From Candidatus Dojkabacteria bacterium (GTDB lineage: Bacteria > Patescibacteriota > Dojkabacteria > SC72), in assembly GCA_035370405.1 (NCBI GenBank), contig DAOOVT010000002.1:1-59096 (forward strand): a stretch of 59,096 bases of DNA, read 5' to 3'. Shown here piece by piece: positions 3,958-39,414 of this stretch. Position 1 is the first letter of the stretch, and the number at the start of each line of letters is the position of its first letter. A model generated the notes under the pieces. That model saw nothing but the letters and a program-made list of their open reading frames with translations, ran no database searches and was not told where the DNA came from. A program made the translations under genes and the position numbers.

Positions 3958-4936
3958 TATTGTTTTTTATAGAATTATTTAATAAATAATTTCTTACAAA
4001 ATCTTCTAGTTTTTTCTCTTCTTTATTATTGAAATTCATATTTTTCAAATCATCTTCTGTGAGTTTTAATATCATGTCTATATTAATAATCCCATTCTGA
4101 AGCAATTTTTTTAGAACTTTTCTGTCTAAGTTTTTGATACTATCATCTGGGGTAGGGGGTTCTTTCTCTAGAGTCTTTGGCTTGGGTGTTTTCTGAATAT
4201 TTTCATCAGTTTTTACTTCGTCATTTGTATGAATTACGGAAGGCTTCTTTGGCTTCTTTATGGTGTCATAATCGCCCTTATTATCTGAAATAACTTTACC
4301 ATTTTCTATACGTATGACTCTTGTTTTCATAAAATCAACAATTTCTTTATCATGGCTTATGACCATAACTGTAGTTCCACTTTTGTTTATATTTCTTAAT
4401 ATTTCCAGTATTTGAAATGAATTATCTGGATCGAGATTCCCAGTTGGTTCATCTGCAATCAATAAATCAGGATCGCTTGCTAATGCCCTAGCTATGGCTC
4501 CTCTTTGTTGTTCCCCTCCTGATAGTTGAACAGGAAAAAGAGATCTTCTGTTTTCTAGCTTAACTAAATTAAGTAAATAGCTTGTAGTTTCCTTTATCTC
4601 TTTGTCTGGTTTTCCTAGAATTTCAAGTGCAAAAGCGACATTTTCTTCTAGAGTCTTACTTGGTAATAGCTTTATATCTTGAAATACAACACCTAATCGT
4701 TGCCTGTATTTTGGTATTAATGGTTTTGGAAGTTTTGTAATTTCAACATCTTCAAAAAAGATTGATCCAGCTGTAGGAAGTTCTTCCCTTATTAACAGTT
4801 TAAGTAATGTAGTTTTTCCTGCCCCTGATGGTCCAACTAAGAAAGAGAATTCCCCAGTATCAATATTGAAAGTTACATCCTCTAGGGCTGTAATATCTGG
4901 AGTATATTTTTTTGTAACATTCTCAAATAACAACAT
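3938..4936 (-). CDS. ftsE: Cell division ATP-binding protein FtsE with ~110-aa C-terminal extension
   Basis: Walker A GPSGAGKTT, signature LSGGEQQR, Walker B LLIADEPTGNLD, H-loop ISHD. The ABC domain ends near residue 220. It is followed by a Lys/Pro-rich linker and a helical domain. Confidence 0.9.
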   Translation of the reverse strand: MLLFENVTKKYTPDITALEDVTFNIDTGEFSFLVGPSGAGKTTLLKLLIREELPTAGSIFFEDVEITKLPKPLIPKYRQRLGVVFQDIKLLPSKTLEENVAFALEILGKPDKEIKETTSYLLNLVKLENRRSLFPVQLSGGEQQRGAIARALASDPDLLIADEPTGNLDPDNSFQILEILRNINKSGTTVMVISHDKEIVDFMKTRVIRIENGKVISDNKGDYDTIKKPKKPSVIHTNDEVKTDENIQKTPKPKTLEKEPPTPDDSIKNLDRKVLKKLLQNGIINIDMILKLTEDDLKNMNFNNKEEKKLEDFVRNYLLNNSIKNNNEQQNN

Positions 4937-4975: not shown

Positions 4976-6079
4976 TTACTTCATTCTTATTTCTGCTTCA
5001 ACCAGTTCATCTATATTCCCATTTAAAACACTTTCAGGATCATATATTTCTATTCCTGTTCTAAGATCTTTTACCATTTTATATGGGTGAAGTATATAAT
5101 TTCTTATTTGGTTTCCCCATCCTGCAATTTTGTACTCTCCCTTAATATCAGATATTTTTGCCAATTTCTCTTCCTCTTTTATGTGCCATAATTTTGCTTT
5201 AAGTATTTTCATTGCGTTCTCTCTATTTTGAGCTTGGCTCCTTTCTCCAGAAGATTGAACAGTGATATTGGTAGGAATATGGGTTATTTGTACTGCAGAT
5301 GATGTCTTATTTACATTTTGTCCTCCAGGACCTCCTGATTTTACAGCTTTGAAGAGAATATCTTTTTCTGGAATCTCAAGTTCGGGATCTTCATCTTCTA
5401 ACATTGGTAATACTTCTACTCCAGCAAATGTAGTTTGTCTTAAGCCTTGAGAATTAAAAGGAGATATTCTGACTAATCTATGTGTTCCGTGCTCTTTTTT
5501 TAGTATTCCATATGCATATGGCTCATTGATATACATGGTTACACTTTGTAACCCAGTTTCATTTCCTTTTGTTATTTCAGATATTGTATATTCCCAATTC
5601 TGCTTGTCAAAATACATAGTGTACATTCTAAAGAGCATTTCAACCCAATCATTTGATTCTGTTCCTCCCTGTCCAGCATATATGGAAAGTATTGCATGAG
5701 CATTATCATATTGTGCTGAAAGAAATTTTCTTAATTCAAATTTATCTAGTTTTTCTCTTAGAGTAAGGTAATCATCGATAAGGAGGTTTTGTTCTGTTTC
5801 TTTAGTTATCGAATTAAATATATCTGCTAATGTGTGTATATCATTTTCTAGAGTCTGTGCTGTTGAAATTTCATATTGTATATCTGCAATTTCAGCCATA
5901 ATGTGTTTAGCTTCTTTGTTGTTTGACCAGAAATTGGAATCTAATGTTTTGTTTTGTAATTCAGCTAATTTCTGCTTTTTTTGATCAATTTCAAGGCTCT
6001 TTATTGTTTTTTCAATATCTGATTGAAGATCTAAGATATCTTTTTTGCGTAAATCGTTCATATGTAATATATTATACAC
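4976..6079 (-). CDS. prfB: Peptide chain release factor 2
   Basis: SPF tripeptide (RISPFNSQG) and GGQ motif (SGGPGGQNVNKTSSAV). Encoded in a single uninterrupted frame. An alternative ATG lies at 6061. Confidence 0.93.
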   Translation of the reverse strand: MYNILHMNDLRKKDILDLQSDIEKTIKSLEIDQKKQKLAELQNKTLDSNFWSNNKEAKHIMAEIADIQYEISTAQTLENDIHTLADIFNSITKETEQNLLIDDYLTLREKLDKFELRKFLSAQYDNAHAILSIYAGQGGTESNDWVEMLFRMYTMYFDKQNWEYTISEITKGNETGLQSVTMYINEPYAYGILKKEHGTHRLVRISPFNSQGLRQTTFAGVEVLPMLEDEDPELEIPEKDILFKAVKSGGPGGQNVNKTSSAVQITHIPTNITVQSSGERSQAQNRENAMKILKAKLWHIKEEEKLAKISDIKGEYKIAGWGNQIRNYILHPYKMVKDLRTGIEIYDPESVLNGNIDELVEAEIRMK

Positions 6080-33253: not shown

Positions 33254-35458
33254 TTAATTTAAAATTTTCTCAAGAATTGTGCTTTTGTGTGTTGTTGTTA
33301 TATATAGCTTATGTAATGCTCGTGTCGTAGCAACATACAATTTTTTTATATCTATTTCCTTTGTTGAATAGTATTCATCGTAAAGATCTGCAATTACTAC
33401 TGTGTCAAATTCAAGCCCTTTTGAGTTTGATATTGGGAGGATATGCAATCCTGGTTGATAGTTGCTTTCAGAATAATCAAAAACCTCTTTTCCTATTTCC
33501 TTCTCATATTTTTTTAGTTTGAAGAATAACTGGTCTGCATGAGTGCGGTCTTTACATAGCACAGCACAAGTTACAGAGCCATTTTCAAATTGGTTTTTTA
33601 ATATTGATATTAATTTGTAAATTTCATTGGTTGGTATTTTTGAAATTGAGTCAGAGAAGTTAATAATTTCTACTTTTTCACCATGTCTAAGCACTGCTTC
33701 TGGCAATTCATATGAGTCATCGAGGAAGGATTTCATAATCTTATTGGCAAATTGGACTATTTCGATTGTTGTTCTATAGCATTTATTAAGATTATAGTAT
33801 TTTGCCTTTTTCTTAGTGTATTTTTCTACTAGTGCTAAGATATTTTTCCAATTTTTTATGTAGAAAGGAGGAATTATTGATTGAGCTGGGTCTCCTGCTA
33901 TCGTTATATTTCCATCTCTTGCTATTAGGCACAATGTGGCTATTTGTACAAAACTCATATCTTGTGCTTCATCTATGACAATATAATCCCTCATATATTG
34001 TTTTGTGCCATAGATTTTAAGATGTAGGTATACTATTGGTGCTAAATCTTCTATTCTGTATGTATGAATTTTTCCATTTGTACTAAGACCTTTTAATGAA
34101 TATGAGTTAATGTCTTTTAAAAGTAGCCCAGTTGTAAAGAGTTTTTTGTAAAGTGAATAGATTTTTAATGATTTTCTAAAATATTGTATTAATGTGCTTT
34201 TCACCTCAGTCAAATTTTGATAATTTTTGCTAGACAGAGATGTTTTTAATTCTTCCTGATGTATAGCATACTCCATCGCTAATTCTAGACGCTCACTCAT
34301 ATCAATATTGCTGAACTGATTTTTTAGTTCATAATACCGATTTATTATGATTTCTTTATGCGTGTAAGGAATATTTTCTAAGATATTTTGTTCTGTTGTG
34401 TCAATATATTGATCAAGTATTTTTAGGAAATCAATGGAGCCCTTAAATTCTTTTATTTCTGGATTTTCTTCATTTGTCGAAACAGTGTAGTAATCATTCC
34501 ATCCTAGAACCTTTTTGGCCCAAAAGAGGTATGTTATGCTGTCAATTTTTGATATTCCTAAGTTGGGGAGAACATCTGAAATGTAATCTATGAACAGCTG
34601 ATTTGGTGCTATGACTAATGTGTTTTCATTTGAAATTTTGTCTTTGTAGGTGTAAAGCAAATAGGCTAATCTATGAAGAAGTATAGTTGTTTTCCCACTT
34701 CCTGCAACACCTTGTACAATTATTGGGTTATTTATTTGATCCCTTATGATTTGATTTTGTTGTGATTGAATTGTTGATACGATATCCTGAAGCTTTTTTC
34801 CCAACCTTTCATTTAATTGGGCAAGAAGGAATTCATCGGCTGTTTCATTTCCTGATTTCGCATCATATATTCCTTTGATCCTAGCTAAAGAGATTTGGAA
34901 TTGCCTTTTTTGAAGTAAATTGCCTTTTTTTTCTCCGATGGGTGCAAGAAAAGATACATTTTGACGAGGTCCAGAATTTTGGTAGTATAAATTGGCAATT
35001 GGGGATCGCCAGTCAATTATTAGAGGAAGATTAGTTTTTTCATCAATTTTGGCGGATTTTCCTATATACAAAGTAAGTGGTTTTCCCGTGGTAGAGTCAT
35101 AAGAAAGGAAAGAAATCTTACCAAAGTAAGGAGAGTCGAGAACATTTAATTCCTCATTTATTCTGTCGACAACTCTTTCAATTTGATTGAGAATTTTGTT
35201 GTAAATTGATTTCGCTGCGAGAATTGAGTCTTGTCCTGATTCTGCTTTTATAATCATTGCTTGATTTTCTAAGTCTATTTCCAGTGAATGTAGTTTTTGA
35301 AGGAGAAATGCTAGTTTCGAGGAGGTTATTTGGGTGGTATGCTCAAGATATGGGTACTCTTCTTGAAGGATATTTGTATCTTTCTTAACATTAGAAAAGT
35401 CCACGATGGAATCCAAGTCTTTATATATGGGATTAAGGTATTTTGCGAATGTCTGCAT
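33254..35458 (-). CDS. UvrD/Rep superfamily-1 helicase, HelD-like (helicase IV-type)
   Basis: Walker A VQGVAGSGKTT, DEAQ box VIDEAQDM, C-terminal SF1 motifs (GLEFDTVVI, YVATTRA), and a ~220-aa non-helicase N-terminal region containing SPYFGKISF. The likely ATG is at 35458 (MQTFAKYL). Confidence 0.8.
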   Translation of the reverse strand: MQTFAKYLNPIYKDLDSIVDFSNVKKDTNILQEEYPYLEHTTQITSSKLAFLLQKLHSLEIDLENQAMIIKAESGQDSILAAKSIYNKILNQIERVVDRINEELNVLDSPYFGKISFLSYDSTTGKPLTLYIGKSAKIDEKTNLPLIIDWRSPIANLYYQNSGPRQNVSFLAPIGEKKGNLLQKRQFQISLARIKGIYDAKSGNETADEFLLAQLNERLGKKLQDIVSTIQSQQNQIIRDQINNPIIVQGVAGSGKTTILLHRLAYLLYTYKDKISNENTLVIAPNQLFIDYISDVLPNLGISKIDSITYLFWAKKVLGWNDYYTVSTNEENPEIKEFKGSIDFLKILDQYIDTTEQNILENIPYTHKEIIINRYYELKNQFSNIDMSERLELAMEYAIHQEELKTSLSSKNYQNLTEVKSTLIQYFRKSLKIYSLYKKLFTTGLLLKDINSYSLKGLSTNGKIHTYRIEDLAPIVYLHLKIYGTKQYMRDYIVIDEAQDMSFVQIATLCLIARDGNITIAGDPAQSIIPPFYIKNWKNILALVEKYTKKKAKYYNLNKCYRTTIEIVQFANKIMKSFLDDSYELPEAVLRHGEKVEIINFSDSISKIPTNEIYKLISILKNQFENGSVTCAVLCKDRTHADQLFFKLKKYEKEIGKEVFDYSESNYQPGLHILPISNSKGLEFDTVVIADLYDEYYSTKEIDIKKLYVATTRALHKLYITTTHKSTILEKILN

Positions 35459-35525
35459 GATGATATGAAAAGAATTAGCCAACAGTCTACAACAAACACA
35501 CAAATTTCGCAAATAAACAGTACAA

Positions 35526-35545
35526 GGTTCAACCTGGGTAGAACC
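35526..35545. promoter_or_regulatory. Paired 9-mer site 1: GGTTCAACC-TG-GGTAGAACC
   Basis: Read directly from the sequence. One of three paired GGTnnAACC sites in the helD-like/dedA intergenic region. Confidence 0.6.
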
Positions 35546-35660
35546 TCATACTGCTAGATGTTGGTGTACTAGCATTTCGCTATCAAAAATATGTTTATTC
35601 AATTTCAGTAGTCTTACTGATTTCTTTGCTCTTTCAATACTTTCGGAGAGTTTCTGGTAT

Positions 35661-35684
35661 AAGGTTGAACCTAGGTTCAACCTT
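35661..35684. promoter_or_regulatory. Paired 9-mer site 2: perfect 24-nt palindrome AAGGTTGAACC-TA-GGTTCAACCTT
   Basis: Read directly from the sequence. It is the central site of the array. Confidence 0.6.
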
Positions 35685-35814
35685 AATTCGAATTTAGTGG
35701 GATATACTGGCTACTTTTCGCAAGCGAAGGCTCTATTGAAGTGAATTATAAAATGAGGTATTTAGTTGAAAAAGGTGTGCTAATATAATTAAAATGGGAG
35801 AATACTGAGAGTTA

Positions 35815-35834
35815 GGTTCAACCCAGGTAGAACC
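35815..35834. promoter_or_regulatory. Paired 9-mer site 3: GGTTCAACC-CA-GGTAGAACC
   Basis: Read directly from the sequence. Identical to site 1 except for the 2-nt spacer. Confidence 0.6.
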
Positions 35835-35912
35835 ATGCAGGTGAGGCTTGAGCTATTTTGTCTTTTCTGTCAGAATGTCATAGGATTAAATTGACTTGGG
35901 TTGCATTTAGTT

Positions 35913-36533
35913 ATGATTTCTTCGCTTGTAGAGTGGCTTGTATCGATAATTGAAAGTGTGGGTTATGTAGGTGTTTCGCTTGCTATGTTTATTGAAAGCT
36001 TTTTCGCCCCTATCCCTAGTGAAATTATTCTTCCCTTTTCTGGTTTTGTCGCATCAAAAGGAAGTCTTGACGTTTACCTTGTAATCATTTTTGCCACAAT
36101 TTTTGCCTATTTGGGCTCTCTTCCTTTTTATGTGATAGGGTACTATGGCGAAAAAGCGGTTCATAATTTTTTAGAAAAATACGGAAAATACCTATTCATT
36201 ACCAAGGAGGATTTACAAAAAGGTTATGATGCTTTTGCCAGGCATGGTAATATCTTTGTGCTGATTGGTAGAGTTGTCCCAATTGTACGAACATTTATTT
36301 CATTCCCAGCTGGGGCCGCGAAAATGAACTTTCTGCAATTCTCTCTATACACATTATTGGGAACCGCAGTTTGGTCAACATTTCTGGTATTTGCAGGTTT
36401 CCTTCTTGGGGAGAAATGGGAAATCGTATCAGTATATGTAAATAAATATGAAAATGCTATTTTAGTCTTAATTGTACTATGTGTAAGTGCCTACATTATA
36501 GCTAAAGTGAAAAAAAACAGGAAAGTAAATTAA
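35913..36533 (+). CDS. dedA: DedA family (SNARE-associated/VTT domain) membrane protein
   Basis: DedA motifs (FIESFFAPIPSEIILPFSGF, GRVVPIVRTFISFPAG). The ATG is at 35913; the track ORF starts at a TTG at 35901. Confidence 0.88.
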   Translation: MISSLVEWLVSIIESVGYVGVSLAMFIESFFAPIPSEIILPFSGFVASKGSLDVYLVIIFATIFAYLGSLPFYVIGYYGEKAVHNFLEKYGKYLFITKEDLQKGYDAFARHGNIFVLIGRVVPIVRTFISFPAGAAKMNFLQFSLYTLLGTAVWSTFLVFAGFLLGEKWEIVSVYVNKYENAILVLIVLCVSAYIIAKVKKNRKVN

Positions 36534-38689: not shown

Positions 38690-39211
38690 ATGAAAGATGC
38701 CAGTTTATCAATATCTAACAAAGTACACGCTGATCGAAGAGTACTTCTCTCGGAGAAAAATAAAGATACTATTGATGTAGAAAAAATTTTTAATCTAGTT
38801 CTCGGGCGAGAACCTACTCAGCATGAAAAAGCGTATTACAAGATTAATAGGATTTCTCCCGATTATATTGCGGAAACACTTATTGTAGGAGAGGAGCACG
38901 CTGGACTAGTGAAAGATGGTCATATGTATCATAAATTAAAGAAAGAGGTAGAATCTCTTAAAGGTACGATATTGAGGTTGCACTCTGATGTTGAAGATAA
39001 GAGTAAGGAGTTAGCAGAATTAACAAAACTTCTTAATGAAAAAAACAAGGTAATTGCAGAACTTAGGAAATCAAATAAAGCTCCATATGTTTCTGAAAAG
39101 ATTACCAATTCTTCTAGAGTAATTTCATGTAATGAAGAAAAAAAGAAGCCAACAAAGGATGATTATTCCTTTTGGGATAGAATTTTAACTATTTTTTTTG
39201 ATAAGAGATAA
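38690..39211 (+). CDS. Hypothetical coiled-coil protein (173 aa), weak DUF4214-like N-terminal segment
   Basis: IFNLVLGREPTQHEKAYYKINRISPDYIAETL resembles the DUF4214 repeat and is followed by a coiled coil. The stop overlaps the XRE gene start (TAATG). Confidence 0.5.
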   Translation: MKDASLSISNKVHADRRVLLSEKNKDTIDVEKIFNLVLGREPTQHEKAYYKINRISPDYIAETLIVGEEHAGLVKDGHMYHKLKKEVESLKGTILRLHSDVEDKSKELAELTKLLNEKNKVIAELRKSNKAPYVSEKITNSSRVISCNEEKKKPTKDDYSFWDRILTIFFDKR

Positions 39212-39414
39212 TGACTACAAAGATTTTTGCTCAAAGACTAAAAACAGCAAGAAAAGAGGCGGGATATTCTCAGAGATATCTTGGTATGAGAGTTGGATTG
39301 TCTGATAAATCGATAAGTATATATGAAAGGGGTGATATGTATCCACCAATAACCAATCTGCTCAAAATAGCAAAGGAGCTGAATAAAGATATTTCATATT
39401 TTCTTAAGGACTAA
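39211..39414 (+). CDS. XRE/Cro-C1 family helix-turn-helix transcriptional regulator (67 aa)
   Basis: FAQRLKTARKEAGYSQRYLGMRVGLSDKSISIYERGDMYPPITNLLKIAKEL is a canonical HTH_3 pattern. Confidence 0.85.
   Translation: MTTKIFAQRLKTARKEAGYSQRYLGMRVGLSDKSISIYERGDMYPPITNLLKIAKELNKDISYFLKD

Follow-up and report, generated by a model that had tools for sequence, protein, structure and literature searches.

Three palindromic sites between a helicase gene and dedA in a Candidatus Dojkabacteria genome are probably REP-like elements of a RAYT system

Why should a small genome keep three similar short sites in the gap between two divergent genes, as a switch for those genes, as the helices of an RNA or as traces of mobile DNA? 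The question arises from a stretch of 59,096 nucleotides (the window) that helicase homologues assign to Candidatus Dojkabacteria, which belongs to the CPR/Patescibacteria and has about 34% GC. Its longest non-coding stretch, a gap of 454 bp, separates a gene for a UvrD/PcrA-type SF1 helicase on the minus strand (33254-35458) from a DedA/VTT protein gene (dedA) on the plus strand (35913-36533); two larger apparent gaps, produced by crude ORF calling, are occupied by real ORFs, one of 250 aa with a GTG start and one of 358 aa. A first-pass annotation had drawn attention to this gap and to three sites within it, each made of two GGTnnAACC 9-mers, and the sequence is as it described: site 1 reads GGTTCAACC-TG-GGTAGAACC (35526-35545), site 2 GGTTGAACC-TA-GGTTCAACC (35663-35682) and site 3 GGTTCAACC-CA-GGTAGAACC (35815-35834).

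The three sites span 20-22 bp and are all intergenic. Taken as 22-mers, and listed like the spacers between them without a strand, they comprise an imperfect palindrome that we term a-type (site 1, AGGTTCAACCTGGGTAGAACCT, 35525..35546), located 66 nt from the helicase ATG, a b-type site (site 2, AGGTTGAACCTAGGTTCAACCT, 35662..35683) and a second a-type site (site 3, AGGTTCAACCCAGGTAGAACCA, 35814..35835), located 77 nt from the dedA ATG. The palindrome centred on site 2, previously reported as perfect over 24 nt, is indeed perfect and extends over 26 nt (35660-35685). Distances of 137 and 152 bp separate successive site starts, as measured before. The 115-nt spacer between sites 1 and 2 (core 1-2, 35547..35661) has no detectable conservation or homologue, and the 130-nt spacer between sites 2 and 3 (core 2-3, 35684..35813) has the length of the 130-132-nt spacing found at unrelated loci of relatives.

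Chance does not account for this cluster, as had been argued earlier. The pattern GGTNNAACC has 11 strand-matches in the window compared to 2.8 +/- 1.7 in shuffled sequence, with 10 of the 11 falling inside the gap, and the paired pattern is present at three places where 0.08 are expected. Nothing comparable to the 22-mer consensus was found in the rest of the 59 kb when up to five mismatches were allowed. To a description by pairs of 9-mers we prefer a 20-24-bp palindrome centred on CTAG and assembled from two, sometimes three or four, 11-bp units AGGTYNRACCT, because the arms in relatives are often not self-complementary 9-mers (for example GGTTCTACC-TA-GGTAGAACC). Each 11-bp module is itself nearly self-complementary, and successive modules lie one helical turn apart.

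The sites had been expected to be conserved in relatives, and this is borne out by the closest one, locus L001, which keeps all three in a gap that has otherwise diverged. The helicase of L001 is 79% identical, the gene order is the same and the gap measures 388 bp; its three sites GGTTCTGCCTAGGTAGAACC, GGTATAACCTAGGTTCACCC and GGTTCTACCTAGGTAGGACC occupy the same relative positions, at spacings of 140 and 153 bp compared to 137 and 152 bp in the window. The counterparts of sites 1, 2 and 3 in this locus are TGGTTCTGCCTAGGTAGAACCT, TGGTATAACCTAGGTTCACCCT and TGGTTCTACCTAGGTAGGACCT, respectively. In the pairwise alignment, the 66 columns covered by sites are 80% identical, compared to 50% in the other 347 gap columns (Fisher p = 3e-6), and outside the sites the sole block of the gap conserved between the two is TTTTCTGTCAGAAT at 35863-35876. 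A TGCTAG/CTAGCA hairpin in core 1-2, previously listed as local structure, is not conserved in L001.

We then considered what the palindromes can form. Folded as single-stranded DNA, site 2 is predicted to give a hairpin of -9.6 kcal/mol (z = -5.3), and sites 1 and 3 give weaker ones of -4.2 and -3.4 kcal/mol because each contains one A-A mismatch; L001 site 2 does not fold. In the fold of the whole 331 nt as single-stranded DNA, sites 1 and 3 can pair with each other over about 22 nt (z = -3.3 relative to shuffles), and the cores of the window are not mutually complementary. A hand count of 22-mers found the two central N positions to be complementary in about 60% of strict matches compared to the expected 25%, which favours a constraint on the whole palindrome, that is, on a hairpin, over one on two independent 11-bp sites. 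According to these computed folds, the unit can form a hairpin of 8-11 bp on single-stranded DNA. A scan for intrinsic terminators, considered separately, places none at any site, and no T-run follows the sites.

Given such folds, the gap could encode a structured non-coding RNA of about 300 nt with the palindromes as its helices, as had been proposed. The stability of site 2, the better-than-shuffled fold of the region and a few plus-strand G-T wobbles that retain pairing in the L001 and L002 copies are all consistent with an RNA. We nevertheless regard this reading as very unlikely. The sequence between the would-be helices is close to unconstrained, with the 50% identity to L001 given above against 80% in the sites; two of the three sites carry the A-A mismatch and the L001 counterpart of the third does not fold; the arms are symmetric on both strands; and the palindrome recurs in both orientations at dozens of unrelated loci. 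Furthermore, no Rfam 15 family reaches its gathering score in the window, where even at E <= 10 only noise of 15-19 bits is returned, and none overlaps the elements in 16 related loci.

Other relatives bear on the history of the locus. In L002-L006, with helicases 63-64% identical to that of the window, a DUF192 gene of about 190 aa lies between dedA and the helicase gene, and a motif of this kind, in a GACC version, is found in the spacer between helicase and DUF192 genes. The spacer of L002 carries a triple unit, AGGTCTGACCT|AGGTCGGACCT|AGGTTGGACCT, and that of L004 two doublets 185 bp apart. More distant Dojkabacteria (helicase at most 56% identical), collected by a metagenome scan with a helicase alignment, have a DUF192-dedA pair divergent from the helicase gene across a spacer of 70-112 bp, and the motif is absent from their helicase-DUF192 spacers (at least 12 Dojkabacteria loci among the matches listed). 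As the 129 bp of the L002 spacer equal 96 bp plus the 33-bp triple unit and the 309 bp of L004 equal 101 bp plus a 208-bp element, we conclude that the motif was added, in particular lineages, to an ancestral spacer of about 100 bp. The lineage of the window and L001 has probably lost the DUF192 gene that other relatives carry at this position. Two candidate remnants were sought in the gap and rejected: tblastn with five DUF192 proteins against the window and L001 returned only noise (best E in the gap about 57-74), and tblastn with RAYTs left the gap without a match.

To place the sites in a wider context, we scanned 185,579 species genomes, one per species and 596 Gb in total, with the pattern AGGTYNRACCTAGGTYNRACCT. 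The scan returned 47 loci, 41 of them in 11 metagenome-assembled genomes (MAGs) of Dojkabacteria type or from other CPR bacteria, with the remaining six, about the number expected by chance, in unrelated bacteria. Contigs with a strict match numbered 10 in JBMNPD01, 6 in CAZPGN01, 5 each in CAYZNW01 (the genome of L002) and DATERJ01, 4 in CAZSAV01, 3 in CAYPAR01, 2 each in DHUO01, CAZKXP01 and CAZHSU01, and 1 each in JAGPFQ01 and CAZJBF01; the chance expectation for a strict 22-mer is about 3e-5 per Mb, compared to up to 10 contigs in a single MAG. Several of these MAGs are titled 'Saccharibacteria' and have Dojkabacteria gene order. Since site 2 would have matched the pattern, the window's own genome lies outside the species representatives scanned; it is sampled here by 59 kb, with all three copies in one gap. 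Further copies are absent from the rest of the 59-kb window and from the 14 kb of L001, and three matches in viral contigs are at background level.

The great majority of the strict matches are intergenic. In low-GC loci, where long ORFs leave 18% of bases uncovered, this 18% holds 55 of 61 sites (about 90%, at up to three mismatches), with genes in the related loci defined by simple ORF calls. The sites of the window belong to a repeat family of one Candidatus Dojkabacteria clade and a few other CPR genomes. No base outside the 22-mer is conserved, and no conserved GTAG stands at the foot of the hairpin, GTAG being present only within the a-type arm GGTAGAACC; in two GC-rich MAGs the palindrome is extended to TCA-site-TGA.

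No shared function links the genes beside the copies, among which are those for Lys-, Gly-, His-, Pro- and Arg-tRNA synthetases, EF-Tu, EF-P, L31, NusG, PilB, PBP1, Ogt, rubrerythrin and MraZ/MurF as well as tRNA genes. Some copies separate convergent genes or lie a few nt from a stop codon, chiefly in the two GC-rich MAGs. A CtsR-like or heat-shock regulon, considered on the grounds of GGTCA-type half sites and the sizes of neighbouring genes, was dropped when Pfam identified the neighbours as PilB, PBP1, a beta-CASP RNase and Ogt and not as chaperones. The same survey bears on the idea that the sites are LexA operators, similar to the Cheo box (GAAC-N4-GTTC), that place a repair helicase under SOS control. 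Site 2 does contain GAACCTAGGTTC, and a UvrD-family helicase adjoins it; sites 1 and 3 lack GAAC-N4-GTTC, as does the version in relatives (GACCTAGGTC), copies across genomes are not found beside repair genes as a class, and such a site is missing next to the same helicase in more distant Dojkabacteria. We give this idea almost no credence.

As to their position relative to transcription, copies in low-GC Dojkabacteria mostly occupy promoter regions of divergent or tandem genes. Among the strict matches, about 11 intergenic regions are divergent, 9 are tandem and 2-3 are convergent. The outer edge of a site often lies 19-26 nt upstream of an outward-facing extended -10 element, TGnTAnAAT. Such outward elements occur on both sides in L096, and also in L097, L100, L106, L107, L126, L129, L134 and L136.

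What the palindromes delimit became apparent from relatives in which two of them form the exact ends of a repeated element of 180-208 bp. The insert upstream of the helicase gene in JBMNPD01 (L099, identical to L004) recurs at the unrelated loci L090 and L109 with 72-77% identity over 208 bp, and the similarity stops exactly at the outer edges of the palindromes, with unrelated flanks beyond. An HMM built from these three copies identified full-length copies in L130, L111, L107, L088, L126, L131, L093, L133, L124 and L115, at least 10 further loci from six MAGs. On the reverse strand, too, each strong copy gives a match (E = 1e-12 to 1e-14); therefore, the 208-bp element is, like a REPIN, a long and imperfect palindrome.

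The same HMM (nhmmer) leaves the element of the window unmatched, and BLASTN, local alignment against shuffles and nhmmer all revealed no homology between the cores of the window and those of other copies. The window element belongs to a separate subfamily, which we name AACC-type, the version in L002-L006 and the 208-bp elements forming the GACC-type. Only the sites align in a MAFFT alignment of six doublets. The length of the core is better preserved than its sequence: it is 130-132 nt in 8 of 12 AACC-type doublets (130 in the window, 131 in L001, 132 in L096, 130 and 132 in L097, 132 in L106, and 130 in L134 and in L136), with dissimilar sequences across loci (z < 4), so that the site-to-site spacing is nearly fixed at 152-154 bp even though the core sequences differ. 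An earlier suggestion of a small non-autonomous element comes closest to these observations: the palindromes are indeed the termini of 180-208-bp elements and flank a RAYT-like gene in relatives, as described below, yet the cores of the window match no other copy.

A candidate for the responsible enzyme emerged from two strict matches that precede, by 40-45 nt, a small gene encoding a Y1_Tnp domain. In five of five independent loci (L106, L120, L134/135, L136/137 and L138), this gene is bracketed by palindromes. One lies 40-65 nt upstream of the ATG, and a second begins at nt 440-443 of the ORF, where it either specifies a VLPKxNL tail or falls on the stop codon. A third palindrome, 139-154 nt further upstream and at a spacing as in the window, is present in four of the five loci, the exception being L138. 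The flanking sites of L136, AGGTTCTACCTAGGTAGAACCT and AGGTTAAACCTAGGTTCACCCT, almost equal the a-type and b-type sites of L001, the latter being the RAYT-proximal one and nearly identical to the L001 counterpart of site 2; therefore, the cluster in the window reads a-b-a'.

The Y1_Tnp family has invariant H62 and H64 (the HUH motif) and Y123. Its sole NCBIfam match is REP_Tyr_transpos, with E = 5e-19 and 60-68 bits, which is below the curated cut-off of 80. When the family profile was compared to the PDB, 4ER8 (E. coli TnpA-REP) was retrieved with E = 2e-7, ahead of ISDra2 TnpA with 2e-4; a profile is needed for this result, as a PDB search with a single RAYT sequence returned nothing. The gene is also syntenic: L106, L134 and L136, representing three species, share the order G5 protein, RAYT, TPR protein and EF-G, with RAYTs that are 63-65% identical. 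The flanks of more distant homologues have the same build in other letters, AGATTSAATCT in L139 and GGGCCRGRCCC in L140. Neither the 59-kb window nor the 14 kb of L001 contains a RAYT gene.

At the level of sequence, these comparisons establish conserved, dispersed and extragenic palindromes that appear as the ends of repeated elements and, in relatives, bracket a RAYT-like gene. We consider it probable that the three sites in the gap are copies of a repetitive extragenic palindrome (REP-like), that is, REP/REPIN elements of a RAYT system, and they are most likely relics of small mobile elements as opposed to a dedicated switch for the helicase gene and dedA. By analogy with E. coli TnpA-REP acting on REP and with IS200/IS605, a single-copy RAYT-type HUH/Y1 transposase would recognise the hairpins on single-stranded DNA and nick beside them, and the palindromes would spread into intergenic DNA singly or as doublets with a core of 130-165 nt. 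The computed folds agree with such a mechanism. The cluster of the window, a-115 nt-b-130 nt-a', may date from an ancestor shared by the window organism and L001, the palindromes having since been kept by selection or homogenisation while the cores drifted. We infer from the distribution of copies, and not from observed events, that the family is mobile; as the cores of the window match no other copy, the comparison gives no sign that the window element transposed as a unit. Also speaking against the REP reading are the absence of a RAYT gene and of further copies from the 59-kb window and the 14 kb of L001, the NCBIfam score under its cut-off, the weak hairpins of sites 1 and 3, the lack of a conserved flanking GTAG and a preference for promoter regions over 3' ends.

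A role in regulating the helicase gene and dedA is not needed to explain the sites. Their position just upstream of both promoters makes side effects on transcription possible, and should the dedA transcript begin within the element, its 5' leader would include site 3 as well. The reading that gives regulation the central part, foreshadowed by the earlier proposal of an operator array, is that the sites are, or have become, bound as double-stranded DNA by a protein in dimeric or tetrameric form, be it a global regulator, a nucleoid protein or the RAYT, which acts at promoters and through the array in the gap controls or insulates those of helicase and dedA. Nearly self-complementary 11-bp modules one helical turn apart, the conservation in L001, the outer edges 19-26 nt upstream of outward TGnTAnAAT in many relatives, the over-representation of divergent intergenic regions and a spacing of about 152-154 bp despite differing cores would all suit such a protein. 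They have to be weighed against the heterogeneity of the neighbouring genes, from tRNA synthetases, EF-Tu and PilB to PBP1, Ogt, rubrerythrin and tRNA genes; against copies between convergent genes, a few nt from stop codons or inside ORFs; and against palindromes at which a repeated 208-bp element exactly begins and ends, one copy always lying within the 3' end of the transposase ORF. The XRE protein encoded at 39211-39414, which had been put forward as the candidate regulator, has no site near its gene. With the same palindrome beside dozens of unrelated genes, beside stop codons and in the transposase ORF, an operator array specific to the helicase gene and dedA is not supported, and we judge binding by such a protein to be an unlikely explanation.

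The closeness to promoters can be explained by survivorship, which also weakens the case for a binding protein: in divergent spacers of about 100 bp, the point between back-to-back promoters is the only one that tolerates an insertion. On the basis of this closeness together with the near-fixed spacers, we can also envisage that palindromes linked to a RAYT were co-opted as promoter-boundary modules, in which a protein, possibly the RAYT, binds pairs of sites 152-154 bp apart directly upstream of the -35 position of outward promoters and thereby sets or insulates divergent output, for example of helicase and dedA. We hold such co-option to be doubtful.

If the sites are REP-like elements, the repeat family and its transposase provide a concrete marker with which to follow how the genomes of uncultured Dojkabacteria change and explain unusually long intergenic gaps in these genomes; the repeats may also bear on how DUF192 was lost at the helicase/dedA locus. 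They further serve as a warning against taking motif clusters in such gaps for operators before their distribution across the genome has been checked. Were promoter closeness to reflect function as opposed to survivorship, the family would represent domesticated mobile DNA that shapes transcription in a minimal genome, and the promoter-boundary reading, if true, would mean that a REP system has been domesticated and given a defined regulatory architecture. Genomes of CPR bacteria have undergone extreme reduction and usually count as repeat-poor; near-complete Dojkabacteria contigs measure about 0.65-0.76 Mb. To our knowledge, work on REP/REPIN-RAYT systems has dealt almost exclusively with Proteobacteria, and in the literature searched we found none linked to CPR bacteria, Patescibacteria or Dojkabacteria.

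Among the known systems to which the family can be compared, Neisseria Correia elements are similar in being MITE-like, 100-200 bp long with inverted-repeat ends, present in many copies, often near promoters and able to change expression. Correia elements end in terminal inverted repeats of 26 bp, show TA duplications and are believed to rely on a DDE-type transposase, whereas the ends in Dojkabacteria are self-palindromes linked to a Y1 transposase. IS200/IS605 insertion sequences with their non-autonomous derivatives (PATEs, palindrome-associated transposable elements) share with our family a Y1 HUH gene bracketed by left- and right-end hairpins, short derivatives reduced to the hairpin ends, and the lack of obvious target-site duplications. 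Unlike IS200/IS605, the Dojkabacteria transposase has a profile nearer to TnpA-REP than to ISDra2 TnpA, and its gene is syntenic across species and not scattered.

The closest likeness is to REP/REPIN-RAYT systems such as E. coli REP with TnpA-REP (PDB 4ER8) and the REPINs of Pseudomonas fluorescens (PMC3116915, PMC3337134, PMC5581495). The palindrome family together with the RAYT-like gene that it flanks in relatives shows traits that define these systems (PMC5581495, PMC3116915). In both, short imperfect palindromes are over-represented (here in the relatives) and extragenic; they occur singly, in clusters or as doublets that form a long hairpin (here in the 208-bp family of the relatives); they flank an HUH/Y1 transposase gene at a syntenic, apparently vertically inherited position (again in the relatives); and repeat variants differ between genomes. 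The differences lie in the host, a CPR bacterium, and in the anatomy of the repeats. In the Dojkabacteria palindrome, self-complementary modules of 11 bp are arranged in tandem around an invariant CCTAGG; the spacers within doublets are long, at 130-165 nt, and a conserved flanking GTAG is lacking. GTAG at the 5' foot is typical of classical enterobacterial and pseudomonad REPs and defines some RAYT groups, not all. Unlike classical REPs, which are mostly found at 3' ends, copies in Dojkabacteria lie mostly upstream of promoters, the 3' repeat is inside the transposase ORF, and the NCBIfam RAYT score stays under the cut-off. We take this to be a known kind of system in an unusual host, with an unusual anatomy of 11-bp modules, long spacers, an in-ORF 3' repeat and closeness to promoters.

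Among all other Dojkabacteria relatives examined, dedA is directly preceded by a DUF192 gene (about 175-195 aa) that diverges from the helicase gene, as seen when the gap at 35459-35912 of the window is compared with L002 5278-5871, L004 2779-3339 and loci L007-L018. This gene is absent from the window and from its closest relative, L001, and no remnant was detectable when looked for in both; its place is taken by the repeat cluster. Deletion via recombination between repeat copies is a possible cause of the loss. Beyond the three palindromic sites, the sole block identical between the window and L001 is TTTTCTGTCAGAAT (14/14; window 35863-35876), which precedes the dedA ATG by 37-50 nt, includes the extended -10-like sequence TGTCAGAAT and is probably a promoter gained by dedA after the loss of its DUF192 operon partner. 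Over the window as a whole (1-59096), intergenic gaps have a median length of about 39 bp, and 11 tRNA genes, single or paired, are spread across the 59 kb.

A perfect 11-nt inverted repeat in the window, GAAATGCTAGT / ACTAGCATTTC (35305-35315 and 35568-35578), has one arm within the helicase gene, in the 5' part of its coding sequence, and the other in the spacer between the first two palindromes; since the spacer arm is not conserved in L001, the pairing is probably due to chance. In one distant relative, the spacer upstream of the helicase gene is enlarged to 434 bp (L013 5567-6000) and carries the inverted repeat ACCAAGTCTGGTAA...TTACCAGACTTGG, which differs from the palindrome family and suggests a separate, unrelated insertion at the same spot.

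The same palindrome was found in two MAGs of 50-57% GC, showing that the family reaches beyond the low-GC Dojkabacteria. It is of the GGTTSAACC type in CAZPGN01 (L087, L091, L095, L098, L103 and L125) and of the GGTCSGACC type in CAZSAV01 (L089, L092, L123 and L127), is often extended by TCA...TGA and mostly sits 4-15 nt downstream of stop codons; at L098 the 11-mers occur four times in tandem (44 bp). At L129, a cassette of about 230 bp is present in two copies (4582-4830 and 5402-5640), each with three palindromes at a spacing of exactly 73 nt. After a further 36 nt come TGATATAAT, an RBS and one member of a pair of paralogous small genes (about 106 aa, without a Pfam domain); array and gene were duplicated jointly. 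An internal motif, GTTTCCTAGNCC, recurs in GACC-type elements of 180-208 bp from several genomes (L090, L093, L115, L117, L124 and L131), at a distance of about 45-60 nt from one end; it could represent a third palindrome that has degenerated, or a site for cleavage or for a host factor.

In the REP-type transposase (RAYT) ORF, the 3' palindrome always starts at nt 440-443 (L106 4033-4054, L134 3440-3461, L136 3443-3464, L120 5879-5900 and L138 3441-3462). It is read as (E/K/R)VLP(K/R)(L/M)NL in the longer proteins, whose C-terminal tail is thus coded for by the transposase's own repeat. More distant RAYT homologues, 36-43% identical (L139 2380-3100 and L140 2340-3200), have flanking palindromes that share this architecture but not the sequence: AGATTSAATCT at L139, GGGCCRGRCCC at L140. 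Near the RAYT gene of L140 there is a reverse transcriptase and bAvd pair, a signature of diversity-generating retroelements.
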